Below are positions 1,740 to 55,950 of a DNA stretch of 57,324 nt, piece after piece. The notes beneath the pieces are model-generated. The model saw only the letters and a list, made by a program, of their open reading frames with translations, did not search any database and was not told the origin of the DNA. The stretch is from IMG/VR virus record IMGVR_UViG_2778261526_000005; one strand, given 5' to 3'. The stretch is from a virus. Lineage: Duplodnaviria; Heunggongvirae; Uroviricota; Caudoviricetes. The number at the start of each line of letters is the position of its first letter. Within the stretch, counting starts at the first letter, position 1. The position numbers and the translations under genes were made by a program.

Positions 1740-2609
<870 letters not shown>

Positions 2610-3041: not shown

Positions 3042-3174
3042 GACCACCAGCGTATCGCCTTCAGATATGCATCCTTGCTAAACTTAGATCGCCGGTCACC
3101 AACTAAGCATGCAGTATGCGTTATGTTTTTTATTGCTCCCAGGGTAATGTGTCCACTAACTAAACAAGGAGATA

Positions 3175-35521: not shown

Positions 35522-35740
35522 GTGGAGAAACATATGCTGAACCTCGATTGTGTTCCAATCTCAACTTATTGCAAAGAAACTGGCGAAACTCCTGAAGCAA
35601 TAAACAAACGTGTACAGCGCGGTGTTTGGCGTGAAGGTGTTCAGGTTTTAAAGGTTGAAGGCGTTAAGGAGAGGTGGATTGATCTTAGTGAGGTTGCAAA
35701 ATGGGCCAGACAAAACTGCTCAAACTACCGCGCGGCGTAA
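35522..35740 (+). CDS. xis: Excisionase-like protein
   Basis: 72 aa directly upstream of and overlapping int. Confidence 0.5.
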   Translation: MEKHMLNLDCVPISTYCKETGETPEAINKRVQRGVWREGVQVLKVEGVKERWIDLSEVAKWARQNCSNYRAA

Positions 35741-38353: not shown

Positions 38354-39039
38354 TGGGAAGCGAAGATCTGTTCAAAAAAAGAAAGGCTCGGCGTAATAAT
38401 GAATTCAAACGAGTTAGTAAAGCACGAGCTCAAATGAAGAAAATTCTTATCGTCTGTGAGGGAGAGAAGACTGAGCCCGCATATTTTACAGATTTTATAA
38501 AACATTGCCGTATAAGCACGGCAAGCATAGTTGAGATTTCTGGAGAGTGCGGCTCAAGCCCTATGAATGTGGTATCTTGGGCAAAAGAAAAATATAATAC
38601 GGAAAAAAAAAGGAGCGACCCTTATGATAAGGTTTATTGTGTCTTTGATAGAGACGCTCACCCTAACTATGATGAAGCTCTTAGCAGGATTAATTCCTTA
38701 AATCCAAAAGGGATTTTTGTTGCTATAACTTCCATACCATGTTTCGAGTACTGGCTGATACTACATTTTGGATACACCCGAAAATCATTTTCACCTCAGA
38801 AAGGCAAAAGTGAAGGCGCACAAATGCTAGCTGAGTTAAAAAAATACATGCCAGATTATGAGAAAAAGGCATCAGGTGTATTTAATAAATTGCAAGATCG
38901 GCTCGATACGGCATTAATCAATGCTAAAAGAGTCGAAGATGCCGCCAAAAAAGACGGTTCGATAAATCCTTCAACTAAAGTTGGCGCTTTGATTACAGAT
39001 CTAATTAACATTCGTGATGACTTTGAAAATGAGAAGTAA
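38338..39039 (+). CDS. RloB-like (TOPRIM-like) protein, AbiLii-like
   Basis: ILIVCEGEKTEPAYF matches the RloB motif as recalled; overlaps the ATPase gene. Confidence 0.6.
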   Translation: MGEILMGSEDLFKKRKARRNNEFKRVSKARAQMKKILIVCEGEKTEPAYFTDFIKHCRISTASIVEISGECGSSPMNVVSWAKEKYNTEKKRSDPYDKVYCVFDRDAHPNYDEALSRINSLNPKGIFVAITSIPCFEYWLILHFGYTRKSFSPQKGKSEGAQMLAELKKYMPDYEKKASGVFNKLQDRLDTALINAKRVEDAAKKDGSINPSTKVGALITDLINIRDDFENEK

Positions 39040-39165
39040 AAATAACATGTCATGATGTAGCGACGGCAGCATGTTTAAGTTCAAATGGCAAAGTGTACGC
39101 GAAGTATACGCGGCTCAAAAACAATAGAAAAAACGTATATTTTACAAAAGATTATATAAATTTTG

Positions 39166-39195
39166 ACGCGGGTTCAACTCCCGCCAGTTCCACCA
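39166..39195 (+). other. tmRNA (ssrA) 3'-end copy, about 30 nt: att core of P4-like element
   Basis: gacgcgggttcaactcccgccagttccacca matches the ssrA 3' end (T-arm, acceptor, CCA) with one mismatch; upstream is not ssrA-like. Confidence 0.7.
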
Positions 39196-39230
39196 AATAA
39201 TGATCCGGATACGTCCGGTGAAGTACAGAA

Positions 39231-39264
39231 AGCCCGCATGGCACAAGCCCTGCGGGCTTTTTTG
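39231..39264 (+). terminator. Terminator-like hairpin after ssrA fragment
   Basis: agcccgca...tgcgggct followed by tttttt. Confidence 0.4.
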
Positions 39265-39379
39265 TGTTTGTCGTTGTCCGAGAACATCCGGCTAAATCCG
39301 ATGATTATTGGTATACGTTTCGGTATACGGTAGGATGTATACCTAAAAGCGTATACCAATTCATGAAGGAGCGGCCACA

Positions 39380-40579
39380 GTGGCACGGACAACACGCCCC
39401 CTGACCAACACCGAAGTTCTGCGCGCGAAAGCGTTAGAGAAGGATCTAACGCTGCATGATGGCGATGGGCTTTTCCTGATAGTGAAAACTAGCGGCAAGA
39501 AACTCTGGCGCTTTCGCTATCAACGCCCAGCAACAAAACAGCGGACTATGATGGGACTTGGTGCTTTTCCTGCCCTTTCTCTTGCTGATGCCCGAGGGTT
39601 AAGAGCAGATTACCTTGCCCTATTAGCCAACGGAATCGACCCGCAAATTCAAGCTGAAGTTGCAGAGGAACAGCAGCAAATCGCTCTGGACAGTATTTTT
39701 TCGACGGTCGCCGCTAACTGGTTCCAGCTCAAAAGCAAAAGCGTTACCCATGATTACGCTAAAGATATATGGCGTTCACTGGAAAAAGACGTATTCCCCA
39801 CCATCGGGGAGATCCCTGTCCAGCAAATCAAAGCCCGAACACTGGTTGAAGCCCTTGAACCGATCAAAGCTCGTGGGGCGCTGGAGACGGTGCGCCGGTT
39901 GGTGCAGCGTGTTAACGAGATAATGATTTATGCCGTAAATACTGGTCTTATTGATGCCAATCCAGCATCAGGCATTGGAATGGCCTTTGAGAAGCCAAAA
40001 AAACAAAATATGCCTACGTTGCGCCCAGAAGAATTGCCTATGCTGATGCGTTCTCTCGTCATGTCAAATTTGTCTGTTCCGACTCGCTGCCTCATTGAGT
40101 GGCAACTCCTGACTCTAGTTCGTCCTTCTGAGGCTTCCGGTGCTAGGTGGGCTGAGCTCGATCTCGATGCAAAGCTCTGGACTATCCCAACTGAACGAAT
40201 GAAGGCTAAGCGGGAACACATAGTCCCTCTATCTCCTCAGGCATTAGAGATTCTTGATGTGATGAAGCTAATCAGTGCCCATCGTGAACATGTTTTCCCG
40301 AGTCGGAATGACCCAAAGCAACCAATGAATAGCCAGACGGCAAATGCTGCTTTAAAAAGGATTGGATTTGGTGGTAGATTGGTTGCTCATGGATTGCGTT
40401 CAATTGCCAGCACCGCATTAAATGAAGCGGGTTTTAATGCAGATGTAATTGAGGCTGCTCTTGCACATAGTGATAAAAATGAAGTGCGCAGAGCATATAA
40501 TCGTTCAACTTACCTTGAGCAACGAATAGGACTTATGAATTGGTGGGGCCAAAAAGTGTACGAGCGCAATCAATATTAG
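39380..40579 (+). CDS. Tyrosine integrase, P4/CP4-57 IntA-like (GTG start)
   Basis: Closely resembles E. coli IntA as recalled; AGGAG RBS. Confidence 0.9.
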   Translation: MARTTRPLTNTEVLRAKALEKDLTLHDGDGLFLIVKTSGKKLWRFRYQRPATKQRTMMGLGAFPALSLADARGLRADYLALLANGIDPQIQAEVAEEQQQIALDSIFSTVAANWFQLKSKSVTHDYAKDIWRSLEKDVFPTIGEIPVQQIKARTLVEALEPIKARGALETVRRLVQRVNEIMIYAVNTGLIDANPASGIGMAFEKPKKQNMPTLRPEELPMLMRSLVMSNLSVPTRCLIEWQLLTLVRPSEASGARWAELDLDAKLWTIPTERMKAKREHIVPLSPQALEILDVMKLISAHREHVFPSRNDPKQPMNSQTANAALKRIGFGGRLVAHGLRSIASTALNEAGFNADVIEAALAHSDKNEVRRAYNRSTYLEQRIGLMNWWGQKVYERNQY

Positions 40580-40608
40580 TTAACTTGTTATACATGGAGA
40601 TATAGTTC

Positions 40609-41067
40609 ATGGAGAATAATCTAGATAATTTATGTTATGAATTCTTTAGAGAGTTTTCACGTTATGAATATTGCCTTAAGGCATGTGGACTTCATCATAA
40701 AATAAAAGATGCTAAAGCGAACTGGGATGAGTATGCAAAGCAAGTTTCTGAAATCATAAATAACACAACTGATCCAGAGCTAATTGCTGCTATCACCTAC
40801 TTTAAAGAACACCCACCCAAAAAACAAATCATAGAAGATGACTCTTTAGTTTGGGATGATTCTTTACCACAAGAAAAAGATTTAGCAAAATTTCTTTTTT
40901 TGTTAATCCGCCGTGTAAGAAACAATCTTTTTCACGGAGGAAAATTTAACGGGAAATGGTTTGAACCTGAACGTAGTGAGGCGTTACTGCAACATGGCCT
41001 TGTTATTTTGAGGCATTGCGGCACAAGGCATAGTGAAGTAAGCAAAGCCTATTCTGGAATAGCCTGA
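40609..41067 (+). CDS. Hypothetical 152-aa protein in int-psu hotspot
   Basis: AT-rich ORF convergent with the helicase gene. Confidence 0.45.
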   Translation: MENNLDNLCYEFFREFSRYEYCLKACGLHHKIKDAKANWDEYAKQVSEIINNTTDPELIAAITYFKEHPPKKQIIEDDSLVWDDSLPQEKDLAKFLFLLIRRVRNNLFHGGKFNGKWFEPERSEALLQHGLVILRHCGTRHSEVSKAYSGIA

Positions 41068-41159
41068 GCGGTGTTATAAAAGAGAAGTTTTTGTTACTGG
41101 AAGAATGATAAAATTCAAAAACTTCTCTATTGATTGTTTAAAAAATCGTCTAAATAAGA

Positions 41160-43742
41160 CTATTGTACCCAAAAGTTACGAAATATATTATGTATTTCGT
41201 TTTGAACTAATTGTGGCAGTTCTTCCATGTCAACTTTATTGTCCTTAATCCAATTAATGCATTCTTCCTCATCTAAACTATCATTAGGAATAAGCTCTGA
41301 AATCATTACAGCAGCAGTTCTTGAAAAGCCAAGCCCTATTAGTGAAATCTGAGTTTTTAAACTTACACCCAGTTCTAAATAAACACCGATATCTTCAACA
41401 TCTTTTGCTAAGTCTGTGCGATCTATCGAAAGATAAAAGCTTTTTAATAAATCATTATAACATCCTAAAAGCCTTGGAGCTTGATAGCGAGCGATCTCTT
41501 CAACATCCTTCATAACCCCTCGTATTAAAGTCGCTTCTTTGAAAACAATATTTTTCTTTTTGTTATATCTTATTCTATCCGAGATCAATCTTGCTAGGGG
41601 ATAACCTTTCATCCACTTGGAAACTAACAAGGCCTGTACGTAAGCTCCTTTTGAATTATAACCTAGCTTCTTACTCAGAGTATCACTAATTCTAGAGAAT
41701 GCGGATACATATGAATCTAACGCATCATTACTACCAGGTTCAGAAAGCAGTAATCTCTCTACAGGTTTGTTTGTATCCCGCGAAAATCTATCCCAAAGGT
41801 TTTGCATTAAAAGCGGGCTTATACCAGGATGCCGCACAACCAATTCGTGTGGAAAAGTTAAAGAATCAAAAACATCAAATATTGCTTCATTTAAAACATC
41901 GATATTTTTTATATTGTACTTTTCCATGTAAGGATTATTATCCAAGCCATTATAAAAATAAAATGATGAACATAAATAACTAAATAGACTCTGGAGATTA
42001 GGATTCCGCTCAGACATACCAAAATGATGCTCTGAAAAAATATAGGAAACCAACTTATCCATGTCATGGGAAATAGCATCCGTGGCGCGAGTTATAAATA
42101 TATTTTTTTTGGTTTTTGGAGGCTCTCCATTCCAAATTTTTTCATTGTCGCTATCGATGCAGATGACATTACCTTGGAATTCTTTTCCCCAACGACCAGC
42201 TCTGCCAGCAAGATTCCAAAAATCCTCTTCTCGCATCGGGGTTGAATTACCCTTTTTAGGGCCTCTTATAAAAATATTTTTACAAGCCATGTTTACGCCC
42301 TCAACTAAAGTTGAGGTACAAATTAAAAAATCAATCTTACCTTTACTAAACAATCGTTCAATCTCGCCCTTTATTATTAAAGGCATGTTGCCATAATGAA
42401 AAGCGACTCTCTTTTTTAGAGTGCGATTTAATGCGAAATTTTTATGTATAATTGTCTCACTAAGCTCAACGAGAGCTAAAATTTCTTCATCCTCAGTCTC
42501 ATTTTCTATACTTGCAGATATTAGCTTGGAAGTAGATTCTGCTTCAGCGGCTCCATTTACGTAAACTACGTTACCAGAAGCCCCCTTACCTAAACAAAGA
42601 GCTACAAAAGGCAATCTTTTACTTTCAGGAGATGGTGCATTTTCTAAAGAAAAGTTTCCTAACTCGCGTTTTTCACCGTTTGCAAAATAATACATCAACC
42701 AATCTTTGGTCTTGCGTGGTTTTTGTTCTACCCATATTAAATTTTGATTAACTGTAACATAGTCACTTTTTATAGTTCTTTTGTTTTTTAATATTGGAGC
42801 ATCACTGAGCAATATTTCAGGATTTAAGGTGAAAGGACTTGCAAAGATAACTTTTGAATCAGGGTTATTTAGACAAGTCAGTTCAATTACATGTTGAAGA
42901 ATAACACCTCTTCCACCATCACCGATCTTGTGTGCTTCATCAACAACTAAGACGTCTATCTTTGGAATTTGTGAGAAATGATTGTAGAATAAATTTAATC
43001 TTTCCTGTGTAAATATGAAGACATTAGATTTTTCGCTCTGGTATACATTACTCAATGGTAGTGTCTGAATATTAACTATATTTGTTAAATTAGGATCCAA
43101 ACGTTTTTGCAACTCAGAATATACTTCTGAAATCAATGCCCTTGTTGGTACGATATAAATAACTAAGCAATTCTTATTTCTTTTTACAAACTGCTCCACC
43201 CAAGATTCCAGGATAAATGATTTTCCTACAGAGGTAGGAGCAGAGACACTAACCCATGAGTTTTCTTGTACCGCATCCCAAAACTCTGATTGAAACCTAT
43301 TAGCATAAATATGCTTATCAGCATCTATTTCAATTGTATATAGAATTTTTCTTTTAGTTAGTTCTAACTGAGCCTTTAAGGGTAATCTTTCTTCGAAATC
43401 AGGGTTAAGATACCCCCTATTTTCAGCAAGTTGTATTGCTGGATTATTAGATAATGAATCAAGAATTAATGCAGCACTATCTTTTCTTGCTTCACTTTTT
43501 TCATTCAATAAGCAATACTGTGCAATCCTTAAGGCTGCATCTTGGCATTTCTCATCACTTGAGAAAGCCAAAGAACTAGCACATGTTAAAAGATAGCCGA
43601 CATCCTCAGAACTAATCTGTGGGATTACATCTGATTTTAACTCTGGAAATTGATCTTTTATCGAGTTAGCGACTAATGCCTGATATTTTCTTAAGAATCC
43701 TTGATTCTTAATCAACCACCCAGATAAATCTCGCAACGACAT
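41160..43742 (-). CDS. Superfamily II helicase, Hachiman HamB-like
   Basis: Motif I SAPTSVGKSF, motif II VVDEAHKI, motif VI-like AGRAGRWG. Confidence 0.6.
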   Translation of the reverse strand: MSLRDLSGWLIKNQGFLRKYQALVANSIKDQFPELKSDVIPQISSEDVGYLLTCASSLAFSSDEKCQDAALRIAQYCLLNEKSEARKDSAALILDSLSNNPAIQLAENRGYLNPDFEERLPLKAQLELTKRKILYTIEIDADKHIYANRFQSEFWDAVQENSWVSVSAPTSVGKSFILESWVEQFVKRNKNCLVIYIVPTRALISEVYSELQKRLDPNLTNIVNIQTLPLSNVYQSEKSNVFIFTQERLNLFYNHFSQIPKIDVLVVDEAHKIGDGGRGVILQHVIELTCLNNPDSKVIFASPFTLNPEILLSDAPILKNKRTIKSDYVTVNQNLIWVEQKPRKTKDWLMYYFANGEKRELGNFSLENAPSPESKRLPFVALCLGKGASGNVVYVNGAAEAESTSKLISASIENETEDEEILALVELSETIIHKNFALNRTLKKRVAFHYGNMPLIIKGEIERLFSKGKIDFLICTSTLVEGVNMACKNIFIRGPKKGNSTPMREEDFWNLAGRAGRWGKEFQGNVICIDSDNEKIWNGEPPKTKKNIFITRATDAISHDMDKLVSYIFSEHHFGMSERNPNLQSLFSYLCSSFYFYNGLDNNPYMEKYNIKNIDVLNEAIFDVFDSLTFPHELVVRHPGISPLLMQNLWDRFSRDTNKPVERLLLSEPGSNDALDSYVSAFSRISDTLSKKLGYNSKGAYVQALLVSKWMKGYPLARLISDRIRYNKKKNIVFKEATLIRGVMKDVEEIARYQAPRLLGCYNDLLKSFYLSIDRTDLAKDVEDIGVYLELGVSLKTQISLIGLGFSRTAAVMISELIPNDSLDEEECINWIKDNKVDMEELPQLVQNEIHNIFRNFWVQ

Positions 43743-43743
43743 T

Positions 43744-44685
43744 TCAACTCTCCAATGCTTTAATTAAACTAGCCCTAAATGCTTTTACTGAAGGAAAAGG
43801 AAGAATAAAAACATGCATAGCAAAGCGATCAAGTTTTTTATTAACTATACCACCTTGCACACTAGTTGACCATTTCCCGACTTTAGTATTAATCAAAGCA
43901 ACTAGTTCACTGATATCAATTGAACTGGGCCCTTGTGGATAATCTTTAAGATCAAACCCAACTAAGCATATTCCTCTGTATTCCAATTTATTAAAATCCG
44001 GGCTATCAGGATCTAAGAATCTTTTCAACGCTTGTTCTAGTTCTATATCATCAACATTTAAGTGCGACTCCAGCAACTGCATATCACGTGTCTCAGCGCC
44101 TTCTATTCCCATAGAACTTTGAAGTAATGGAGCTATACTATCCATACACTCAGAAATACCTTTGCTCAGATTGGAATAGAGTTTAGACTCGCCCCAGTAT
44201 AAACATAATTTTTTATTATCTTTATCTACGCCTATATGTATTCCATCTGCACCATGGTAATGCATTTGAGAACTCGTTTTCAGGCTCATTTTGCAAATAA
44301 TTTGTGGAAATCTAAGGAATTGCTCTGCAAATAAAAAAAGAATAAATTCACCGCCTTCGCCACTATTTGCAAGCCTAGTAAATAATTTTTTTGCTTGATT
44401 TGCTAATTTTGTTATTTTCGCTGTTGATTGTGTTTCATTAAAATATTGCACTGCCTCATTGATTTTTTTCCTTGGAATAGCATAATCAACTACTTTATCG
44501 TTCAAGAATTGGATTAACGCGTCTACCCGAGGACGTCCATTGCCATCAAGATTAAGGCAATGAAAATGACAAGTTGCATTTGTATTTTCAATCAATGAAT
44601 TAACTTTAACTTCACTAAAATAACTATTTAGTGTTTGACCATCATCTCTAATCAGATTTTCAAGCGCGACATGCAGTGCATCCAT
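43744..44685 (-). CDS. HamA-like protein (possible PD-(D/E)xK nuclease)
   Basis: 313 aa immediately upstream of the helicase; D...ESK-type motif (GVDKD...WGESKL). Confidence 0.45.
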   Translation of the reverse strand: MDALHVALENLIRDDGQTLNSYFSEVKVNSLIENTNATCHFHCLNLDGNGRPRVDALIQFLNDKVVDYAIPRKKINEAVQYFNETQSTAKITKLANQAKKLFTRLANSGEGGEFILFLFAEQFLRFPQIICKMSLKTSSQMHYHGADGIHIGVDKDNKKLCLYWGESKLYSNLSKGISECMDSIAPLLQSSMGIEGAETRDMQLLESHLNVDDIELEQALKRFLDPDSPDFNKLEYRGICLVGFDLKDYPQGPSSIDISELVALINTKVGKWSTSVQGGIVNKKLDRFAMHVFILPFPSVKAFRASLIKALES

Positions 44686-45110
44686 GAGTAGGTCCTTGCA
44701 TATTTTATTTTCCTCATCATTTGCAATATATACTTATTTCAATAGCTTGCAACATTTTTACTCGACAATGATACTTACACCACACTCGCTGCTTAAAATC
44801 ATTGTTATCGCTTTAACGTGATAAACGATTCTTTCAATCAGGTACTCATTGAAAGTTAAAAGTTACTTTGACCATACACAGCGTGCGCTGCCCCGCCCGC
44901 CTGCCCGCTTCACTTAACAGACTGGTTTTCATGCACCCCGTAAATCGTCTCAGAAGCCACCACACAAGGGCTTTCGCGTCAAAAATGGCGCATGAGACTC
45001 ATGCGTTTTCATGCGCTATAGATATGCACTCATACGCCTTCAGGCCAGCCAGGGAAAAGGCGTAAAAAATCCCGGTACTGGACCGGGACTACGTGGGCGT
45101 ATTTTGCTAA

Positions 45111-45383
45111 TCAGACAGGAATTAGCTGACGGCTTGACAGCTTTGACGCGGAGCCATAGCGGTTGAGAGTTTGCTGTTGTTTTTCTGGCATTTGTTCTTT
45201 GTCTGATTCCTGTTCATTGCGCCAAGGCTTCATAATTATCGTATCCACGCTTTCCAGAGCGGTAAATGTGCAGGAACATTCCAGATTCTGGCACTGATAC
45301 CATGAGCGTTTAACCGATGGAGCTTCATAGGCGCTGGTTCTGGCGTGAGCGACCGTCCCACATTCAGGACACTTCAGGGCCAT
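45111..45383 (-). CDS. ogr: Ogr/Delta-family zinc-finger late activator
   Basis: CPECG...HARTS...YQCQNLECSCTF matches Ogr pattern. Confidence 0.7.
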   Translation of the reverse strand: MALKCPECGTVAHARTSAYEAPSVKRSWYQCQNLECSCTFTALESVDTIIMKPWRNEQESDKEQMPEKQQQTLNRYGSASKLSSRQLIPV

Positions 45384-45384
45384 A

Positions 45385-45939
45385 TCAGTACCCTCCTTTT
45401 TCATTAAGTCGGTTAAGGCGGGCCAGGAAAACTTTATGTTGTGCCGGGGTGAAACTGGTTGAAGCATCAGCGTACATTGATGCATCCACCGTTAATCCGG
45501 TTTCGTCGATAATGCTCTTGTATGCTGCTGAAATTACCGGAGTACGCACTTCCGTTTGTCGGGCTACAGCGGTTCGTAATATTTTCATTGCCGCCTCAAG
45601 CCCGTATGGAGCGCAAAGAAAAGGAGCCAGTGCGTCAGTGAGTGCATCACCATGCTCGCTCATGAAGTTTTCCGTTGCGCTTGTAACACAACTCTCCAGC
45701 ACAATCTGGTGAGCATAAAGACCATCCCGTGCAGCACAGTTAATCTGCCATTCGAGGACAGCAAGACGCTCACGAAGCTCCTCAAGCTGGCTGGCATATG
45801 CTGCCGGTTTTTCTTCAGTATTCAGCAGAGCCGCCAGACGAAGCTGGTAGGTACTTTGCGTATTACGTAGTGTCAGCCAGCTTTTTATCGCCGAGCGGTA
45901 ATCGTTGAGAGCTTCCTGAGTAATGGTTCCGGCATTCAT
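45385..45939 (-). CDS. psu: Polarity suppression protein Psu
   Basis: Recalled P4 Psu segments conserved (ALAP.L, FTPAQ). Confidence 0.7.
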   Translation of the reverse strand: MNAGTITQEALNDYRSAIKSWLTLRNTQSTYQLRLAALLNTEEKPAAYASQLEELRERLAVLEWQINCAARDGLYAHQIVLESCVTSATENFMSEHGDALTDALAPFLCAPYGLEAAMKILRTAVARQTEVRTPVISAAYKSIIDETGLTVDASMYADASTSFTPAQHKVFLARLNRLNEKGGY

Positions 45940-46721
45940 TTCTTCTCGCCCCCTTTAACCATGTCACGCTGTTTAAGCATCCGTGAACGCGCTGCAGGGC
46001 TGGGGGATTGTCTGGCATCCTGGATGGCTTTATCGTCCGCATAAATGCTGATCCCCGGCAGGGTAATATCATCCTTTGAAGATACGTTACAGGACAGTGC
46101 CGGAGTGGTGAGTTGCTCGCTGATAAATTGCTTCAGCACACTTTCGGGGTCGTTTACGGTATGAACTACACCGATAACAGCAGAAGCGCTTCGGCCCAGA
46201 GTCATTTTCAACAGTCCAAGGATCTGAATAAGTTTCTGGCCGTGTTCCTTCATAAACTCATTCCAGAGCCACACTGCATGAGTTTCAATCAGGCGATTAT
46301 GTTCGCTGATGTAGTGGTTTGCAGCATCCGCAGTTTTCCAGGGCAGGAATTCATTTTCTGCCACCTGAGCTGCCAGCAAATCTTCGAACTCATCCAGTGT
46401 TTCGCGTCCGAGGGCGATTTCTGCCCGCAGTTTTTTCATGCGTGGTGTCATATTTCCCTGATTCTCACGAAACAGGTTTCGCCATTCATCATTAAGCGCC
46501 TGCGTTTCCGTTTTTGTATCTTCCTGACGTTTACGGATAGTTTCAATCATTGCAGCAGCTTCAGTTTGTTTTCGCCGTTCTTCCTGCCAGACAGCTTTTG
46601 CTGCCTTAACTTTTTCCACCGCTTCGCGAATTTTCGGCGGGAGGGAGGATGTAATGTTTGCATCAGAGATCTGGTTAACAGTAGTCATGAATGCTCCGGT
46701 AGTGTTTTGTTGTCGTGTCAA
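45936..46721 (-). CDS. Putative Sid-like capsid size determination protein (start possibly 46688)
   Basis: Coiled-coil-rich protein first in the late operon. Confidence 0.4.
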   Translation of the reverse strand: MTRQQNTTGAFMTTVNQISDANITSSLPPKIREAVEKVKAAKAVWQEERRKQTEAAAMIETIRKRQEDTKTETQALNDEWRNLFRENQGNMTPRMKKLRAEIALGRETLDEFEDLLAAQVAENEFLPWKTADAANHYISEHNRLIETHAVWLWNEFMKEHGQKLIQILGLLKMTLGRSASAVIGVVHTVNDPESVLKQFISEQLTTPALSCNVSSKDDITLPGISIYADDKAIQDARQSPSPAARSRMLKQRDMVKGGEKK

Positions 46722-46760
46722 TTGTGCCGATGCCCATACAAGCGCACTACCGAGGGGGAT

Positions 46761-46778
46761 TGTGTCAGTGACAGAACA
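46761..46778. promoter_or_regulatory. TGT-N12-ACA element (Ogr/Delta-type activator site)
   Basis: tgt-gtcagtgacaga-aca read directly. Confidence 0.45.
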
Positions 46779-47601
46779 ATGACCTTGTTCTGGCTAGCCA
46801 GAGAAATGTGTCATGTCTGATCTTCAACTTTCCTTTAATAAATACTATTCACTACTGTTCACTTTGATAAAAAAATTGATAATACAGCTAGTTAAGAGGT
46901 GAAGGGTTGACAAGGCAGTATTCAGTGACTGTTCATGAGTGTTCATCGGAAGGTAGCGTGATTTATGATTTTTTTTCATCAAAAGTGAAATTTTTATTCC
47001 GAATGATTATTTCATTATTGTTCCTCACAACTATTCACCACTCTTCAGTAGTATTCAACAGATGATGAAATAGACGATTTTTCTTTGCCGGGAAATAACA
47101 TGATTCCCCCCTTTCCCTGGTGTTGCATTTCAATCTGATTTTTATAAAACTAGAACTGCTCGGTCTTTTATGAATTTATTTGGATATATTTTTAGGTTAA
47201 GAATGCGTGGTTATTGATTTTATGCGGTTCTAATTCTTCTGAGCTTGATGCAATTCATGAGTATATCCTGAAGTTAGGTTTGCAATGTAAAGCCATATGT
47301 AGAAATTGTGCATCCCTGCTGAATGGGTTGCGGTTTCAGTACCATTAAGTTCTATGACTTATGGGGTAGTAACCCCTGGATGAAAGTTAGTTCCTATTAA
47401 TGTCCCTGTATTTATAGTTCGCAGACATAATATCTATCATGCCATTTTATGTGGTTTGATATAGTTTTAAATTCCATTAAATCAATATGTGACGCTAAAT
47501 AAATAATGGGTGCGTAAGCGAGAAATATATACATAATAAGGAACTACCTGAATCCGGGGGGATTTATCCGGACTGATGAAGGAATTAAAGAGGGTAGATA
47601 A

Positions 47602-47862
47602 ATGCATGATATTTCTGTTTCTGCGCCAGCTCCGGCTGCGCCATTATTTCCTGTGCTGAACCAGCATGAGCGATTTTTACGTCTTCCCGAGGTGATGCAT
47701 TTATGCGGCTTGTCCCGCTCAACTATATACGACCTGATAAGCCGCGATGCTTTCCCGAAGCAGATCCCGCTTGGTGGTAAAAATGTTGCCTGGGCACAGT
47801 CAGAGGTAAGCGCATGGATGGCGGATCGTATAAGTGCCCGCGGACGGGGATGTGATGCATAA
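47602..47862 (+). CDS. alpA: AlpA-family HTH regulator
   Basis: [21 protein letters not shown] resembles AlpA. Confidence 0.6.
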
Positions 47863-48221
47863 TGATGCCTGAACGCATTAATCCCCATTTTTCTGGCTTG
47901 CATCCTGCAGTCATTTCCAGGTATAGTTTTTCCGCTGCCGCAAAATCGGCAGCCGGAATTGGCGTTCCGCGAAACTCAATGGCGACACCAGACGCGCCAA
48001 GCGTCTTTTTTTTCGTCGAAGCTCTGGCACACCCATTTTCCAGGCTGTGGTGTTTATGCGTACACCGTGGTTCTTTCGAGATAATGGCAGTCCGGGCGGG
48101 GCAGCCTTCGGGCTGGCCGGTATCCATTGAGGCCGGTTACGCCAACCCCGTTCGGGCTGCCACCAGTGAAATTGGCGTTTCCGGTGGTAGCAATAACCGC
48201 TACTCAATGGAGGCTGCCATC

Positions 48222-48413
48222 ATGGCTACAACCCTCACCCCGTTTTACCCGCAATATGTCTTTGTGCTTGCCGCAATCCGCCGTGCTGACACTCAACCCC
48301 GCATCTGTATGCTTCGCACCGTGGCCTGCGATGAGCGCTTTGCACGCCTTTCGCTGGTCCGTGATTATGTGCTCTCCCTTTCTGCACGGCTGCCTGCCGG
48401 GGAGGTGATGTGA
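48222..48413 (+). CDS. Hypothetical small protein
   Basis: GGAGG RBS; ATGA coupling to next gene. Confidence 0.3.
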
Positions 48414-48637
48414 TGAATCACGCCGCAATTTCTTATGACGATATTGTCCGCCTCAAGCATCTTCGTAACGTGGGGGAATTTGTCACCGGAATGGCTGTTC
48501 TTCAGGACTGCTATGAAAAACCTGCAGGTGCTCAATGTGAGCAACTGGTTTCCCTGATTTATCTGATGACAGAACAGCTTGATGGCGTGGTACAGCGTTG
48601 CCAGGATGACCTGATGAACAAGGAGGTGGTGCAATGA
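48413..48637 (+). CDS. Hypothetical small protein
   Basis: GGAGG RBS; coupled chain of small ORFs. Confidence 0.4.
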
Positions 48638-48957
48638 AATCACGCACTCTTCCCCTCTCACTTCGGCTGGCGTTATATCGCCGCGCGGTTGCCTGCGCCT
48701 GGCTGAGTATCTGCCATCAGCACAACCGCCACCTGCAGCTCACTCTGGATGAAATTGAAACCGCCATTGCCCGTGAGCTTGAAGGTTTTTATCTGCGACA
48801 GCACGGGCAAACAAAAGGCATGGAAATCGCCTGCGCCCTGCTTTCAGACCTGATGGAATCCGGTCCTCTAATGTCCTGCCCCGCACTCTCCCAGCTCGGA
48901 ATAGCCGTAATGGATGAGTTATGCGTCCGTCACATTATAAAGCCGGTTTTACACTGA
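48634..48957 (+). CDS. Hypothetical protein upstream of primase
   Basis: ATGA-coupled ORF. Confidence 0.4.
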
Positions 48958-48971
48958 GGGAGAACTGCATC

Positions 48972-51305
48972 ATGTCAGGAATGAAAGTCAGTCAGGCCGT
49001 GAAGGCTGCCCGCGGTCACTGGGCGCGGATTTTGCCAGCGCTGGGTATGAACATACTGAAAAATCGCCATCAGCCTTGTCCGGTCTGCGCCGGTAAAGAT
49101 CGTTTTCGCTTCGACGATCTGGAAGGACGTGGAACATGGTTCTGCAACCAGTGCGGGGCTGGGGACGGTTTAGCGCTTGTCAGCAAGGTACTGAATGTGG
49201 ATATCAGTGAAGCAGCAGACAGGATACATGGACTGACACATAGTCTGTCTTCAGCCTCTTCTGGAGTCTGGACGTCAACCGCAGATACAGATGGCGGGAA
49301 ACAGGCGGCAGCAGCACTTGCCGCGCGACTACTGCAAGCCTCGCGTGAATCTGCCGGAAATACTTATCTTACACATAAAGGTTTCCCGGAGCATATTTGC
49401 CATGAGCTGACTTCAGGTCATAAAACCGGTGGGGTGATGTTCCACCCCGGTGATTTGATCGTCCCGCTCTATAACGCTGACGGGGAACTGGTGAATATTC
49501 AGCTTATCAGTGGCAATGGTAGCAAGTGTTTTCTTAAAGGAGGTCAGGTTAAGGAGGCCTATCATCTGATAGAAGGGGGCGGGAGTTCTGTAAGAAGGAT
49601 GTGGATTGCGGAAGGTTACGCCACGGCGCTTACCATTCGTCATCTGACAGGAGAAGCCGTCATGGTGGCATTTTCGTCGGTCAACTTTCTTTCTCTGGCC
49701 AGCGTTGCCCATAACAAGTATCCGGGATATCAGTTAATTATTGCAGCGGACCGCGATCTGAATGGTTCAGGCCAGAACAGGGCTGAAACTGCTGCAAAAG
49801 CGTGTCAGTGTGACATTGTGCTGCCACCGGTTTTTGGTGACTGGAATGATGCGCTTACCCAATACGGAGAGGAATCCACCCGGAAGGCAATTCTTGAGGC
49901 TTTGAAGCCACATAACGCCAGTCCTTTCGACACAATGAGTGAAGCAGAATTCACAGCGATGAGTGTCAGCGAAAAAGCTCAGAGGGTTCGGGAGCATTAC
50001 AGGGATGCACTGGCGGTTGATCCGAACGGGCAGCTTTTATCCCGCTACGAGTCTGGAGCGTGGAAAGTGATTTCTCAGTCAGATTTTGCCCGAGATGTCG
50101 CAGCCCTTTTCCAGCGCCTCGGTGCACCGTTTTCCTCAGGAAAAATTGCTTCACTGGTGGAAACATTAAAGTTAATTGTTCCGCAGCAGCAAAATCCGGC
50201 ACGTCATCTGATCGGTTTTCGTAATGGCGTCCTCGATACGCGAACAGGGCTGTTTAGTCCGCACTGTAAAGAGAACTGGCTGCGTACCCTGTGTGAAGTC
50301 GATTTCACGCCACCGGTAGAGGGGGAAACGCTTGAAACTCATGCCCCGGCATTCTGGCGCTGGCTGGACCGGGCTGCCGGACACAAGCCAGAAAAACGCG
50401 ACATTATTCTTGCGGCGTTATTTATGGTGCTGGCGAATCGCTATGACTGGCAGCTCTTTCTGGAAGTGACTGGCCCTGGTGGAAGTGGCAAAAGTATTCT
50501 GGCTGAAATTGCGACCATGCTTGCTGGAGAGGATAACGCCACCTCTGCGACCATTGAAACGCTGGAGTCCCCGCGAGAACGTGCGGCTCTGATAGGTTTT
50601 TCTCTTATTCGCCTGCCTGATCAGGAGAAGTGGAGCGGCGACGGCGCCGGGCTTAAGGCTATAACTGGTGGCGATGCGGTATCGGTGGACCCCAAATATC
50701 AGAATGCTTATTCAACACATATTCCGGCGGTTATCCTGGCCGTAAATAATAATCCTATGCGCTTCACTGATCGCAGTGGTGGTGTGTCCCGCAGGAGAGT
50801 TATTCTGCATTTTCCTGAGCAGATAGCACCGGAAGAACGCGATCCGCAGCTGAAAGATAAAATTGCACGAGAACTGGCTGTGATTGTTCGCCAGCTCATG
50901 CAGCGTTTCAGCGATCCGATGAGCGCCAGAACATTGCTTCAGTCGCAGCAGAATTCTGATGAGGCTCTCACCATCAAGCGTGATGCTGATCCAGCATTTG
51001 ATTTTTGTGGCTATCTTGAGGCATTACCTGACACCAACGGCATGTTTATGGGGAACGCCAATATTGTCCCACGCCAGCCACGTACCTACCTTTACCATGC
51101 CTACCTCGTATACATGGAGGCTAATGGATATAAAAACACCCTGAGTCTTACGATGTTTGGCAAAGGGTTGCCAGTCATGCTGAAGGAGTACGGGCTACAT
51201 TATGAGAAACGGCGAACTAATCAGGGAATGCAGACTAACCTCACTTTAAAAGAGGAAAGTAATGCAGACTGGCTACCCAAGTGCGATGAGCCAACAATCA
51301 AATAA
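48972..51305 (+). CDS. Primase/helicase, P4 alpha-like
   Basis: Zinc-binding CPVCAGKDRF...CNQCG, TOPRIM-like middle, Walker A GPGGSGKS. Confidence 0.8.
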   Translation: MSGMKVSQAVKAARGHWARILPALGMNILKNRHQPCPVCAGKDRFRFDDLEGRGTWFCNQCGAGDGLALVSKVLNVDISEAADRIHGLTHSLSSASSGVWTSTADTDGGKQAAAALAARLLQASRESAGNTYLTHKGFPEHICHELTSGHKTGGVMFHPGDLIVPLYNADGELVNIQLISGNGSKCFLKGGQVKEAYHLIEGGGSSVRRMWIAEGYATALTIRHLTGEAVMVAFSSVNFLSLASVAHNKYPGYQLIIAADRDLNGSGQNRAETAAKACQCDIVLPPVFGDWNDALTQYGEESTRKAILEALKPHNASPFDTMSEAEFTAMSVSEKAQRVREHYRDALAVDPNGQLLSRYESGAWKVISQSDFARDVAALFQRLGAPFSSGKIASLVETLKLIVPQQQNPARHLIGFRNGVLDTRTGLFSPHCKENWLRTLCEVDFTPPVEGETLETHAPAFWRWLDRAAGHKPEKRDIILAALFMVLANRYDWQLFLEVTGPGGSGKSILAEIATMLAGEDNATSATIETLESPRERAALIGFSLIRLPDQEKWSGDGAGLKAITGGDAVSVDPKYQNAYSTHIPAVILAVNNNPMRFTDRSGGVSRRRVILHFPEQIAPEERDPQLKDKIARELAVIVRQLMQRFSDPMSARTLLQSQQNSDEALTIKRDADPAFDFCGYLEALPDTNGMFMGNANIVPRQPRTYLYHAYLVYMEANGYKNTLSLTMFGKGLPVMLKEYGLHYEKRRTNQGMQTNLTLKEESNADWLPKCDEPTIK

Positions 51306-51315
51306 TTACAACTAA

Positions 51316-51341
51316 CCCGGCTGATGCCGGGTTTTATTTTT
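51316..51341 (+). terminator. Intrinsic terminator after primase gene
   Basis: cccggc-tgat-gccggg followed by ttttattttt. Confidence 0.6.
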
Positions 51342-51603
51342 GCTGGCACAAGAATGTAGAGTTATCTGTTCACTCTTCACCGTACAGTTAACTTCTATTT
51401 CCTTGATTTTGAATGGTAAAAATCCAAAGTGAACAGTGTGAACAATTTATTGAAAAAAGAGTTTTTTTGAATATAGAAGACCTATTTAGCGTGATTTTTT
51501 TAAAGTTCAATAAGTATTGCACCCCGCTATTGGTATACGCTTAGGTATACAAACAAAAACAACTTAAATAAATAACCAATTAAAACATAGATATAACATA
51601 CAA

Positions 51604-51627
51604 ATTCAGACTCCGCCAGCCAATCAT
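51604..51627 (+). repeat. Degenerate ssrA 3'-end-like repeat (candidate att)
   Basis: attcagactccgccagcc resembles ttcaactcccgccagc. Confidence 0.35.
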
Positions 51628-51782
51628 GATTGGACGGTATAAGGACAACACCAATAAAAACAGGAAGTTAGCAGTCTCAGCAGGACACCGACCAGACGGT
51701 GAAGAGACATAAAAGGATACGCAAAGGAGCCGCGGCTCCTGGTGACATGAAAGCCCACAGATGTGGGCTTTTTCGTTGATGG

Positions 51783-52109
51783 TCAGAACGACCAGTTCAC
51801 ACCAGCTACCCCGTTCCACGGGGATTCCACACCGGCACCATGGCTATACCCCACCCCAAGATGCCCGCTTAACGTACTGCTGAATGAGGCTTTAATACCT
51901 GCCTGGTATATTCCACGTCTGCCCGACAAATCATTGACGAAATTACCGTCACTATTCACTTTCACCCGGTTATCATCGACAAATTCTTTGCGCACAGCCG
52001 CCTTCAGCCACGGCTCAACTTCCATACCGTTCCCCAGACGCATGTTGTAACTCAGCGTTGCACCCAGTTCACGATATAAACTGCGGGTATCGACTGATTT
52101 CGATTCCAT
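51783..52109 (-). pseudogene. C-terminal fragment of autotransporter beta-barrel
   Basis: Ends in aromatic C-terminus ...GVNWSF; too short for a complete barrel. Confidence 0.45.
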
Positions 52110-52137
52110 GCCATTGGATAAATGATATTCAGGGTTA

Positions 52138-55044
52138 TCAGCGGTGAACCCCCGTTAACGATGCATACGGCGTCAGGTTCCAGTTACCATCGGTAAATCG
52201 CATCCCGGTTTCAATGTGACCGCCCAGCCCGTTGCTGCGATAACTGCCGTTGGCGGCTCCACCGCTGCCAACCGTGGAGTCGCGAGCTTCGGTACCTGCT
52301 AATACCAATAAATTACCGCCATTTTCCAGCAACATATTGGTCGCTAAATTGCCGGAAATGGAAAAAGTGCCGTACTGGTGAGTACCGCTGATTTCAATAC
52401 CGTTAGCCGTGCTCGTCTGGAGAGCGGCACCGCTGTTCTGGACGATATCTGTCGCTTTGCCATTATCGTTAACTGTCAGCGTACCGCCTTCATTGATCTT
52501 TGTTTTTATTGCCTCTCCGTTAGCTGAAACTGTTTGTATTCCGCCGTCGTTAATCGTTGTCTCATTCGCCACCCCCTCGACGATTTGTTCGCCGCCGGTG
52601 AGCGTCGTGCCTGTCGCAGTGGCTTTTGTTTTGACGATCTCCCGTCCGCCCGTATTGACCTGTGTTTTGTCAGAAGAGGTGTCTGACTCCACGGTTAACA
52701 CGCCGCCATTTGCCAGCAGGATATTGTTCGCCGCACCCTGCTCGATGCTGAACGCGACGCCATCCGCGCGTGTTCCTGTGACCCGCGTCGCCCTGGTGGT
52801 TGCAACCAAAGCGCCCTGGCTACTCTGCTGTATCCCCGTTGCGCTGCCTTTCTCCCGCACATCGAGTGTGCCGCCGTCATTAAGCACCGAGTTTTCAGCC
52901 AGACCGCCCTCATTAACTACCTGTGAACACCCATTAATAATGGAACCTTCCGCTATCCCGTTTGCCATAATTTGTTGTAGGCCAGAGACGATATCGGTAT
53001 TGATCGCCTTACCATAATTCTGAACGGTTTGTGTGCCGCCATTGATGTGCGTTTTGTCAGTTGACCCACCATCAACAATTTGTTCACCACTTTCAATATT
53101 TGCCTCAGTGGCTAAACCATATACCGTTTGCTTGCCACCTTTGATATTTGCTTTATCAGAAGTGGCACTGGCATATATTGTTTGGGTGCCAGCACTATTA
53201 AGTACAGTGCCAACATCTTTTCCATAAACATCCATTTTGCCGTTGGCATTAATAATCGTATCAACTGCCCGGGAACCAGTGACGACTGTTAATGAGCCAG
53301 CGTTTTCCAGCACTACATTTTTAGCTTCTGAATTCCTGATGTAGAAAGCATCACCATAACTGTTGGTTCCTTCGATAAGGGTTCCGGAAGTTGTGGAAGC
53401 AATTAATGCGCCGCCGGATTGTTGCTCAACATGCTTAGCCTCACCACCGTCCTGAACCTCCAGAACGCCACCATTATTAAGTCTGGTGGTATCTGTTTTA
53501 GCCTCCTTCTGGACAATCAGCTTACCGCCAGCATCAACGGTAGTATTTTTCGCCGAGGTTTTAGCCACTACCGTCAGTTCGCCGGTATTTTCCAGCACAA
53601 CATAATTAGCCTCCCCTCCGGTAATAGTGAAGTGAGAGAGCTTGTTGTATCCTTCAATATCAGTCCCTGCGCCCGTGTTGGCAACTAAAGCACTGCCCGT
53701 CTCCTGGTTAACCCCATGTGCAATACCGCCGGTATAGACAATCAGCGAGCCTCCGGCGCTAATATTGCTGCCAATTGCCGTACCATCTTTCTCAACAACT
53801 TGCTGGCTCCCGGAGGATATAATTGTTGTGTCAGCTTTCCCACCGCTTTTGATATTTTGCGTTCCGCTGTTGATATTGGTGCCTGTGGCTATGCCATAAT
53901 TATTAAGATTCTGTGTGCCACCATTAATTATGGTATTTGTCGCGTTTCCTGCAACATCCATAACCCCGCCATTATCTATTCGGGTCGCATCAGCTTTAGC
54001 ATTCGTTAAAACTGACATTGTTCCTTTATCTTTAATAATCGTCTTGTTTGCGGAATGAGATACTTCTAAATGGCCTCCATTTTCCAGCAACACATTGTCT
54101 TCCACTTTATTGTGGATGGAGAATGCACCTTCACTATTCGTACCGCTCACCGTCGTACCGTTAGTGTTTGTTTTTAAAATTGCACCATCGTGCTGGGTAA
54201 CATTTGTTGCCGTACCACCACTAACATCAAGCACGCCACCGGAATAAACTTCAATAACATCCGAGGTGCTGGTGTTATCAACAATTTGCGTGCCACCAGA
54301 ATAGATCTGCGTAATTTTTGCCGTTGACTTACTATTCAGAGACTGAGTTCCGCCTTCAATCGTCGTGTCCAGCGCACGGCTCTCATATACTCTTTGCTCA
54401 CCGCCATTTTTAATGGTTGTTGTTTCTACTGTGCTCTGTTCAACATACTGTCGACCACCATTTATGGTTGTGTTCGTTGCCAGACTTCCTTGTACTACGT
54501 CCTGAGAGCCAGACTTATTTATCGTTGTACCATCAGCATGCCCTTGAACTTTTACTATCTGGCTACCACCATCAATGAGTATTCCATTCGCACTCCCTCC
54601 CTCTACGCGTGAAGCACCGCCCTTAATTGTCGTTCCATTGCTGATACCCCCTTTATAAACGTCCTGATTGCCACTCTCGATTGTCGTACCTGTGGAAATA
54701 CCCCCGTCATGAATTGACTGTCTGCCACCGTTAATGGTTGTATTATTAGCCTGCCCCACAAAATTGTTATGACTTCCTATATCTTGATATCCACCAGATT
54801 CAATAAGACTTCCATTAGATACCCCGCCATGAACATTCTGCTGGCCATGGTTGATAATATGAGTGTTATTTGTTGTACCTCGTTCATCCACTTTTTGGTT
54901 GCCATCTACAGTCTCATCGTTTACCACACCAATAACATCAGGAGTGAAGGCCGCCATACCGGGCGGGGCATATATCAAGGCAGATATCAATAAGGAAAGT
55001 ACTGAGCGGCGACAATAATGGGGACTGGTCCTGTTCATAAATTT
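52138..55044 (-). pseudogene. Autotransporter adhesin passenger domain; beta-barrel translocator disrupted
   Basis: Extended signal peptide, repetitive passenger, junction motif FTDGNWNLTPYASLTG then stop. Confidence 0.5.
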
Positions 55045-55376
55045 CATCCTCTGAAAAGTGAATACTGAGTAGCGTTTAAGCGACCTTAGCTCTGCTGCAA
55101 CATCAGCCCACAGGCACCAGACCAGGGGATTCATCCTGAAGAGACAGCGCAAGTGTATTGTGTTCACCGCTCATCAAAGACATCATGATGAAATGATGAT
55201 ATTCCACATAAGAAAGAAGCATTTTTTAAACGCAGTGCGCTGAAGTATGGTTGGATAAAAAAGTCAATCTATTCAGGGAATACGGGGGTATTCTTTTCTT
55301 TCGACAATCAGGTCGTCGGCAAAATAAAATGATTTACATAATCGTTTCTGATGAATATCTTCTGCTCACATAAAAA

Positions 55377-55616
55377 TCACACAATAACTTTGAGATCGCA
55401 GATTCTTTTACTTTTACAGCATTCGTCCCCCCATTGTTGGGCAAATATAGATTGGGCCAGAGCACGAAAGTTAATACCACGTTTGCACAGCTCCTCCAAC
55501 AGCACGACAAGATGCCACATACTGCGCCCCAGTCGGTTCGGTTTACAGACTACCCGTGCGTCCACCGCCGATAATGTCCTGAGCAGTTTTTTCAGTCCGG
55601 ACCTCCTGCCACGGTT
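55377..55616 (-). pseudogene. Serine recombinase fragment lacking catalytic N-terminus
   Basis: VVCKPNRLGRSMWHLVVLLEELCKRGINFRAL resembles resolvase/invertase core; stop immediately upstream. Confidence 0.55.
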
Positions 55617-55619
55617 TTA

Positions 55620-55690
55620 CGTTGAAGAGGTAACCCTGAGCACGCAGTTCATCAGTCAGGCGTGGTGTACCGTAACCCTATTATTGATGG
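55620..55690 (-). mobile_element. Short IS3-family (IS911-like) transposase fragment
   Basis: Encodes GYGTPRLTDELRAQGYLFNVK, recalled as IS911 OrfB-like; flanked by stops. Confidence 0.3.
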
Positions 55691-55762
55691 GTAAGATCAA
55701 AAAAACTTTCAGGCAGCTAAGGAAAGTTGAACCAGACATTAGAATAAATATTTCAACCAATT

Positions 55763-55785
55763 ACAGCACCAATTCAGACACCGCC
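55763..55785 (+). repeat. Second degenerate ssrA 3'-end-like repeat
   Basis: ttcagacaccgccagctcaacaa shares 17 of 23 positions with ssrA 3' end. Confidence 0.4.
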
Positions 55786-55950
55786 AGCTCAACAAATAAA
55801 TCAAGGGGTTACGTGAAAGCGTAGCCCCTTTTTCTTTGGTAGTGGCAGCAAAATGGTTGTAGTGTAAAAAATAATCCCGTTTAATCAATCAATAATACAT
55901 ATTGTTTCAATCTACGTTATTATCTCTTTGTAAAAAGAGCCATTTATTAA

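Follow-up and report, generated by a model that had tools for sequence, protein, structure and literature searches.

The DNA analysed here, a stretch of 57,324 nucleotides (nt) recorded as a virus of the class Caudoviricetes (IMG/VR record IMGVR_UViG_2778261526_000005; hereafter the window), very probably represents 57 kb from the right side of a tandem array, in which integrative elements have accumulated at the 3' end of ssrA, the transfer-messenger RNA (tmRNA) gene of Escherichia coli. Among enterobacterial integration hotspots, the tmRNA gene is the best known. From left to right, the window holds a PhiNP-like prophage, a P4-like satellite with a predicted Hachiman defence system, and a decayed segment that ends before the chromosomal gene ypjCB (Table 1). 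A displaced 3' fragment of the target gene lies at the far end of each island, always on the plus strand (39165-39195, 51604-51622 and 55771-55785). The prophage and the satellite each possess their own integrase gene; the segment 51623-55785 holds a serine-invertase fragment only. The original prediction, made from the sequence alone, was that successive site-specific integrations had occurred at ssrA, and this interpretation is supported. It placed tandem mobile elements between 39166 and 55785, where the satellite is indeed complete, but 51623-55785 is a decayed remnant without an integrase and not a current mobile element. The array also reaches 39 kb further to the left than had been recognized, and this missed part, the PhiNP-like prophage, is itself the youngest member.

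The displaced ssrA end and the two integrases

Positions 39165-39195 read GACGCGGGTTCAACTCCCGCCAGTTCCACCA and differ from the final 31 nt of E. coli ssrA by a single mismatch (30/31; reference sequence from strains 789, EC1722-1 and K-12), a match that arose in none of 100 dinucleotide shuffles. This is the near-perfect copy noted earlier upstream of an IntA-like integrase; it is one base longer than first described and sits 184 nt upstream of the integrase start (39380). Positions 39171-39195 within it correspond to the 25-bp core of PhiNP-type phages, GGTTCAACTCCCGCCAG(T)TCCACCA. PhiNP, a phage of Citrobacter rodentium, integrates experimentally at this 25-bp ssrA 3' end and lysogenises K-12 at ssrA (PMC6456863). 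Its sequence record (phiNP) carries a copy of the 25-nt ssrA end at each border, and its integrase gene lies far from ssrA, as in the prophage. The 92% identity of the two integrases, the ssrA-bounded phiNP record and the demonstrated integration at the core together identify 39165-39195 as the attR of the prophage. In four independent phage-satellite junctions, the bases to the left of GGTTCAAC are variable and the 25-nt core is constant, as would be expected for phage-borne DNA lying left of a crossover within the core. The same prophage-satellite junction was found in strains 190, 98208 and NCCP 15734 with C, not T, at 39188, and the T is therefore private to the window sequence. This mismatch falls on ssrA position 356, the partner of G4 in the acceptor stem. 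For the T to reach ssrA, the crossover in prophage excision would have to fall left of 39188.

The left part of the window (1-39200) is 100% identical to E. coli EC1722-1, in which the order is smpB, intact ssrA, a 155-nt sequence X' (ATCATGATTGGACGG), a type II restriction endonuclease gene, and then the counterpart of window position 1. In EC1722-1, ssrA lies 1478 nt to the left of that position, so that the prophage would extend ~1.5 kb beyond the window, up to the intact gene, and total about 40.6 kb. ARAGORN and Rfam scans across the window detected no intact gene for tmRNA or tRNA, and intact ssrA is thus not in the window; the earlier expectation that it lies outside fits the arrangement in EC1722-1.

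The integrase gene that follows the displaced ssrA end belongs to the satellite and has no meaningful similarity to that of the prophage. Judged from their sequences, two unrelated tyrosine integrases, one of the PhiNP type (Arm-DNA-bind_2) and one of the IntA/P4 type (Arm-DNA-bind_3), are thus predicted to share the same ssrA 3' target.

Natural intermediates of the array

Natural strains represent the empty site, the satellite alone, and the prophage together with the satellite. A synthetic junction of the ssrA 3' end with the window from 51623 onward matched W2-5 and 20KM0223N over 419 of 419 nt at 100% identity, and was full-length in ~10 of 40 matches taken at even spacing from the match list. 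The annotated order in W2-5 is smpB, ssrA, ypjA fragments, pinH remnant and ypjCB. In strain 789, ssrA is followed by the same satellite and then by X (the 155 nt at 51623-51777) and ypjA; the window from 39196 on is 100% identical to the sequence that stands there directly after intact ssrA. Strains 190, 98208, NCCP 15734 and EC1722-1 carry ssrA, the prophage, an ssrA fragment and the satellite, in that order. These intermediates bear out successive integration at ssrA. The comparison with strains lacking each element, which had been suggested as a check, thus yielded a prophage-free strain (789) and a strain free of prophage and satellite (W2-5), but no empty site for the older segment among 5426 complete E. 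coli genomes. The array elements are 99.5-100% identical to their counterparts in complete RefSeq genomes.

Points against the array and competing explanations

A number of points weigh against the array or against parts of its reconstruction; they concern the attachment cores, the position of ssrA, the mosaic structure of the window and the origin of the decayed segment. The motifs AATTCAGACTCCGCCAGCCAATCA at 51604-51627 and AATTCAGACACCGCCAGCTCAAC at 55763-55785 are present as described earlier, when they were taken as degenerate copies of the ssrA 3' end. Against that end they score 11 and 12, the best scores in shuffled windows run from 11 to 16, and other parts of the window give 12-13; by similarity alone they are no better than random sequence, an outcome that the original prediction had itself named as counting against it. 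The octamer CCGCCAGC occurs 14 times in the window. One explanation would be that only the 31-nt copy is a real attachment site, that the degenerate copies are due to chance, and that the satellite and the ypjA region end elsewhere. Because the shuffles failed to separate the copies from chance, flank homology was used in place of ssrA similarity, and it makes this explanation very improbable. The first site (51604-51622) lies exactly where the window rejoins the empty-site sequence of W2-5, and it aligns with psaA, the annotated 14-nt ssrA pseudogene of K-12 that forms the attR of CP4-57, with an identical left flank, CCAATTCAGACTCCGCCAGC. It is followed by the 155 nt (X) that directly follow intact ssrA in other strains. 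Integrase arm repeats lie ~70 nt to its left, the same as those at attL. The second site is supported by the match of 55721-55795 to the CP4-57 attR of K-12 (57 of 74 positions without gaps; score 40 against a maximum of 21 in 2000 shuffles; blastn E 9e-8). In addition, strain BEN5202 has an ssrA 3' end and flank to which 55771-55785 and the next 62 nt can be aligned. The copies are therefore upheld by their context and not by their resemblance to ssrA. Their left halves (AATTCAGAC...) are conserved between the satellite, CP4-57 and the decayed segment, and by this comparison represent the element-borne side of IntA-type attachment sites and not decayed ssrA; the right parts are ssrA-derived cores.

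The matching arm repeats at both ends indicate that the satellite has both attachment arms. Six of the nine copies of GGTATAC/GTATACC in the window lie at its ends, four on the left (39310 and 39322 direct, 39337 and 39351 inverted) and two on the right. Its attR, CCGCCAGCCA followed by ATCATG, is 5 nt (TCCAC) short of the empty site in EC1722-1 and W2-5, CCGCCAGCTCCACCA followed by ATCATG (window 51604-51622 compared with L020, W2-5, 7076-7100). Neither this deficit nor the C-to-T change at 39188 follows from conservative recombination, and both need later mutation. In K-12, excision of CP4-57 is reported to delete U357 and inactivate tmRNA (PMC10107115). A switch of ribosome rescue to ArfA is likewise reported for CP4-57. 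By analogy, excision of the satellite where it abuts ssrA, as in strain 789, should truncate tmRNA, and by more than the single base lost with CP4-57. A prophage between the satellite and ssrA, as in the window, would shield ssrA from such truncation.

The window does not contain ssrA itself, and the relative EC1722-1 is the basis on which the gene would be placed immediately upstream in the source genome. No RefSeq genome on its own matches the window throughout: the left 39.2 kb agree at 100% identity with EC1722-1, whose satellite cargo differs, and strains 190 and 789 match the right part at 99.5-100%. This mosaic may indicate that the array was imported or reshuffled en bloc by homologous recombination, for example by joining an EC1722-1-like prophage with the Hachiman satellite of a 190/789-like lineage. 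Satellite hotspots and prophage end slots do swap cargo between near-identical elements. However, cargo exchange inside the satellite explains the mosaic equally well, and import would concern recent history only, since the attachment sites, by their structure, would even then call for site-specific integration of every element type at ssrA. Import is accordingly a real possibility, but not the one that we favour.

In the decayed segment, X is 91% identical to X' after ssrA in EC1722-1, where X-type sequence occurs twice, and it shares 88% identity with what adjoins the left core within phiNP. These matches suggest that X is the P' arm of PhiNP-type phages or a sequence that they share with the chromosome. 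The adjoining ypjA is annotated as a pseudogene in 789 and W2-5 with the same split into two open reading frames, which implies that this allele is a pseudogene independent of the upstream elements. A copy of 55200-55426, upstream of ypjA, occurs with 82-85% identity beside ymgJ elsewhere in many E. coli chromosomes. The pinH remnant resembles the pin pseudogene of the resident prophage (tblastx, 61% over 39 amino acids) and has the same strand and the same order of arm, cargo and pin. The site at 55721-55785 is also found in K-12, where it is unannotated. The ypjA-pinH stretch is usually taken as backbone beside CP4-57; the evidence is evenly poised on whether it is a fused fossil of the left end of a PhiNP-type phage and the right end of a CP4-57-family island.

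The contrary explanation assumes only two integrations. The stretch from X through ypjA, the pinH remnant and Y (the 62 nt at 55786-55847) to ypjCB would then be ancestral chromosome, X and Y would have been captured in the attP of PhiNP-type and P2-type phages, respectively, and the motif at 55763-55785 would be duplicated or convergent. Consistent with this, ssrA is directly followed by X-ypjA in about a quarter of the sampled E. coli genomes. The segment 51623-55785 lacks an integrase, and at least 2994 of 5426 complete E. coli genomes contain its right end (55200-56400, with the pinH remnant, the second site, Y and the start of ypjCB). An empty site, with ssrA joined directly to Y and ypjCB, occurs in none of these 5426 genomes when searched as a synthetic junction. 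X could be ancestral chromosome captured by PhiNP-type phages. Against this stands the homology, over 74 nt, of 55721-55795 with the P arm and core of the genuine CP4-57 attR, which is hard to explain without a past IntA-type integration, and the presence of X inside the direct-repeat-bounded genome of a Citrobacter phage. The invertase remnant shares its relative position and strand with the resident prophage pin, and the adjoining ypjA is a decaying gene. A wholly ancestral origin is therefore judged unlikely.

Y may be native or element-borne. In BEN5202, ssrA and Y are followed by a P2-like prophage, and the last 45 nt of ssrA with X recur ~34.6 kb downstream of ssrA. The locus looks like another array; the intervening region is annotated only in part. 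The hairpin within Y (55803-55830) is the strongest terminator of the region in a terminator scan. It consists of AAGGGGTTACG...CGTAGCCCCTT with a T run. In a scan of species-representative genomes for the ssrA end with Y, a similar hairpin stood directly behind ssrA in Photorhabdus, Xenorhabdus and Arsenophonus, with changes on both sides of the stem that pair with each other; it may be the ancestral terminator of ssrA or be carried by elements. For these genomes, tblastx found no similarity between the downstream genes and the P2-like prophage of BEN5202. A contig labelled as a Nitrospirota metagenome-assembled genome also matched and looks like contamination.

Proposed history of the locus

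In the proposed mechanism, the attP of an incoming element carries a copy of the ssrA 3' end together with its own terminator. The tyrosine integrase of the element would recombine this copy with intact ssrA, which would be rebuilt from element DNA, and the old 3' end would be pushed to the far side with all earlier arrivals. Because each element supplies a replacement 3' end and terminator, ssrA would stay functional. Such rightward displacement belongs to the standard model of island integration at tRNA and tmRNA genes, which also covers tandem arrays (PMC4383910).

As the oldest step, an island of the IntA/CP4-57 type would have integrated beside Y and left the attR at 55721-55785. Subsequently, a PhiNP-type phage would have integrated at ssrA, bringing X and probably the ypjA cargo next to a pin invertase. 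An internal deletion would then have removed most of the first island and the rest of the phage, so that X, the broken ypjA, the pinH remnant and the fossil attR remain. Many E. coli carry this set right beside ssrA. The absence of an ssrA-Y-ypjCB junction makes these two steps a reconstruction and not an observation, and we infer their order, as well as where the fossil came from and at which positions the crossovers took place. In the third step, the P4-like satellite with Hachiman would have integrated and left the attR at 51604-51622. In the fourth and youngest step, the PhiNP-like prophage would have integrated and displaced the 31-nt ssrA end to 39165-39195. The states after the second, third and fourth steps correspond to the natural strains described above. 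On loss of the phage, the model would join the ssrA body and the core 39171-39195 to AATAATGATCC. On loss of the satellite, it would join the 31-nt fragment to ATCATGATTGG and give a product in which TTTTGACGCGGGTTCAACTCCCGCCAG meets CCAATCATGATTGG.

Gene content of the prophage and the satellite

The prophage encodes a contractile tail and baseplate, an HK97-type head with terminase, lysis, Q, replication, a CI/Cro region, the integrase and an AbiL pair, and its gene order agrees with that of Citrobacter phage phiNP. In the near-identical copy of EC1722-1, several of the genes for tail fibres and pin have decayed to pseudogenes, so that the prophage may be defective. The slot between integrase and attR, here occupied by the AbiL pair, behaves as a second variable cargo slot. 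In related prophages it contains a 265-amino-acid hypothetical protein, two hypothetical genes on the minus strand, or an AAA ATPase with a Dam methylase. The restriction-modification (R-M) and PD-T4-3 genes at the opposite end were considered as a separate islet between ssrA and the phage. This was rejected, as no further ssrA fragment occurs in 1-39164, and it is also countered by the same left end within a 43.7-kb circular record in strains AH02 and CT01. These separate records (NZ_CP081704.1 and NZ_CP081794.1) contain a phage that agrees with the left 20 kb of the prophage at 98.5% identity. In the chromosomes of both strains, the 98.5%-identical phage is also integrated near 4.46 Mb and not at ssrA, which indicates that one structural module can be combined with different integration modules. 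Searched with the prophage right end, the phage collection gave a single partial match, phiNP, and the exact attP of the prophage was carried by no sequenced virion genome in that collection.

From its sequence, 39196-51622 is identified as a complete P4-like satellite with a Hachiman defence system. It contains the P4 core set of integrase, psu, delta, a sid-like gene, Ash and alpha, as well as the immunity RNAs C4 and isrK. HamA (DUF1837) and HamB are adjacent on the same strand in the variable hotspot of the satellite, and the satellite of EC1722-1 has other cargo in this slot. The sid-like gene (45936-46721) is assigned by a weak match to the Psu family and by position. Matches to isrK (76.7 bits; Rfam gathering score 50) and the C4 antisense RNA (84.6 bits; gathering score 45) lie within 47934-48167. 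The Ash/Icd-like open reading frame (47862-48413) overlaps both on the same strand, and its coding call may be partly spurious. Alpha, a primase-helicase, matches Zn_Ribbon_Prim, Toprim_3, D5_N and Pox_D5 of Pfam, and the neighbouring reading frames match Phage_ASH and DUF5375. The assignment of the helix-turn-helix gene (47602-47862) as the AlpA-like regulator of the core set comes from the annotation of strain 789. No P2-like genes were found in the window, and the resident prophage is not P2-like, so that the window offers no obvious helper. The window starts at the exact stop end of the methyltransferase gene and ends at the exact start codon of ypjCB (57324); its borders were evidently set on gene and not on element boundaries.

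Table 1. Features of the window and of the elements assigned to it (strand: +, plus; -, minus;., none given)
Feature	Position	Strand	Basis and remarks
PhiNP-like temperate prophage	1-39164	.	Lambdoid regulation, HK97-type head, contractile tail; youngest array member
Type II cytosine methyltransferase	1-1476	.	ssrA-proximal prophage end; restriction endonuclease partner just outside the window in EC1722-1
PD-T4-3-type GIY-YIG defence gene	1785-2609	.	ssrA-proximal prophage end
pin pseudogene of the prophage	2940-3056	-	Serine invertase; same strand as pinH remnant
Prophage tyrosine integrase, PhiNP type, ssrA-specific	35701-36897	+	Pfam Arm-DNA-bind_2 and Phage_integrase; 92% identity to phiNP integrase
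AbiL-type defence pair	37088-39039	+	AbiLi ATPase 37088-38353, AbiLii/RloB 38338-39039; PADLOC AbiLi 4e-101, AbiLii 3e-29; Pfam AAA_21, RloB
Displaced ssrA 3' end	39165-39195	+	Core of both the prophage attR and the satellite attL
Satellite P' arm	39196-39379	+	Terminator for ssrA, 39245-39259 and T run (terminator scan); four GGTATAC repeats
Satellite tyrosine integrase, IntA/P4 type	39380-40579	+	Pfam Arm-DNA-bind_3, Phage_int_M, Phage_integrase; 61% identity to K-12 IntA
Hachiman defence system, predicted	41160-44685	-	HamB helicase 41160-43742, HamA 43744-44685; PADLOC HamB E=0, HamA 9.5e-136; Pfam HamA, DEAD
P4 late-operon homologues	45111-46721	-	delta 45111-45485, psu 45385-45939, sid-like 45936-46721; Pfam Ogr_Delta, Psu
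P4-type immunity/replication region	47602-51305	+	Helix-turn-helix gene 47602-47862, isrK 47934-48011, C4 48080-48167, Ash/Icd-like 47862-48413, DUF5375 48634-48957, alpha 48921-51305
Satellite P arm and attR core	51532-51622	+	GGTATAC repeats at 51532 and 51544; core 51604-51622, AATTCAGACTCCGCCAGCCA
X, 155-nt flank	51623-51777	+	Directly after intact ssrA in satellite-free strains; homologous to PhiNP-type P' arm
ypjA/ehaD autotransporter adhesin, broken	51783-55167	-	Beta-barrel fragment 51783-52109 (Pfam Autotransporter), AIDA-repeat part 52138-55167 (Pfam AIDA)
pinH remnant, serine invertase fragment	55446-55613	-	Partial recombinase in 789 annotation
Putative fossil attR, CP4-57 family (IntA type)	55721-55785	+	P-arm remnant and ssrA-derived core 55771-55785
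Y, ssrA-type downstream flank	55786-55847	+	62 nt after intact ssrA in BEN5202; terminator hairpin 55803-55830
ypjCB (DUF5507 and DUF5508)	55951-57324	-	Chromosomal gene beyond the array; Pfam; 789 and K-12 annotation

Relation to known systems

CP4-57 of K-12 targets the same ssrA 3' end as the satellite with an integrase of the same family (61% identical). It has the same attR left flank and core, is followed on the right by the same X-ypjA, and its attR is likewise defective. However, the deficit is 1 nt in CP4-57 and 5 nt in the satellite, and the arm repeats are of the GGCCCA/GGACCA type in CP4-57 and GGTATAC in the satellite. Apart from the integrase and the attachment-site flanks, the two have no gene content in common: yfj, rnlAB and abpAB of CP4-57 are absent here, where psu, delta, the sid-like gene, alpha, the C4 RNA and Hachiman are found. 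Unlike CP4-57, the satellite is separated from ssrA by a prophage.

PhiNP shares with the prophage the 25-bp ssrA core, an X-like P' arm, the layout of a lambdoid phage with contractile tail, and a variable slot between integrase and attR, which holds an AAA ATPase in PhiNP. At the DNA level the two are similar only in the integrase/xis region (82% over 1.2 kb). The head genes of the prophage are of the HK97 type, unlike those of PhiNP, and its cargo is type II R-M, PD-T4-3 and AbiL, in contrast to hicAB, sat and dam. In the laboratory, PhiNP forms a tandem of phage and CP4-57 in K-12 (PMC6456863).

P4-like satellites with defence hotspots have the same core genes and variable defence cargo between integrase and psu, and such satellites are among the elements reported from E. 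coli defence hotspot #9 at the tmRNA locus (PMC10121019); the satellite of the window is one more instance without material difference. In Islander arrays, as in the window, every island has a single fragment of the target gene, the fragments share one orientation, and islands are younger the closer they lie to the intact gene (PMC4383910). The two oldest members in the window would fail the Islander filters, as they have no integrase and their fragments are too degenerate.

Significance

Arrays of this kind are known already. Prophages of several groups, P4-like satellites and other elements occupy the E. coli tmRNA locus, a described hotspot (PMC10121019), and tandem arrays at tRNA and tmRNA genes are recognized by a single gene fragment for each island (PMC4383910). 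The PhiNP 25-bp ssrA core, the CP4-57 attR (psaA) and P4-like satellites with defence cargo at the tmRNA locus have all been published, and the finding is a correct but ordinary instance of a documented hotspot. The second fossil site (55721-55785) is the sole candidate for an undescribed feature, and it is a minor one. The practical value lies in annotation, as exact borders are now available for the 40.6-kb prophage, the 12.4-kb satellite and the fossil segment.

Four known defence systems are situated at element edges in the array: type II R-M, PD-T4-3, AbiL and Hachiman, with slots that vary between strains next to them. If the ypjA-pinH stretch is indeed a fused fossil, at least four integration generations would have succeeded one another at this locus, with the same two integrase families alternating. 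In that case, X and Y would be ssrA terminators and arm sites brought by elements, and not native sequence.

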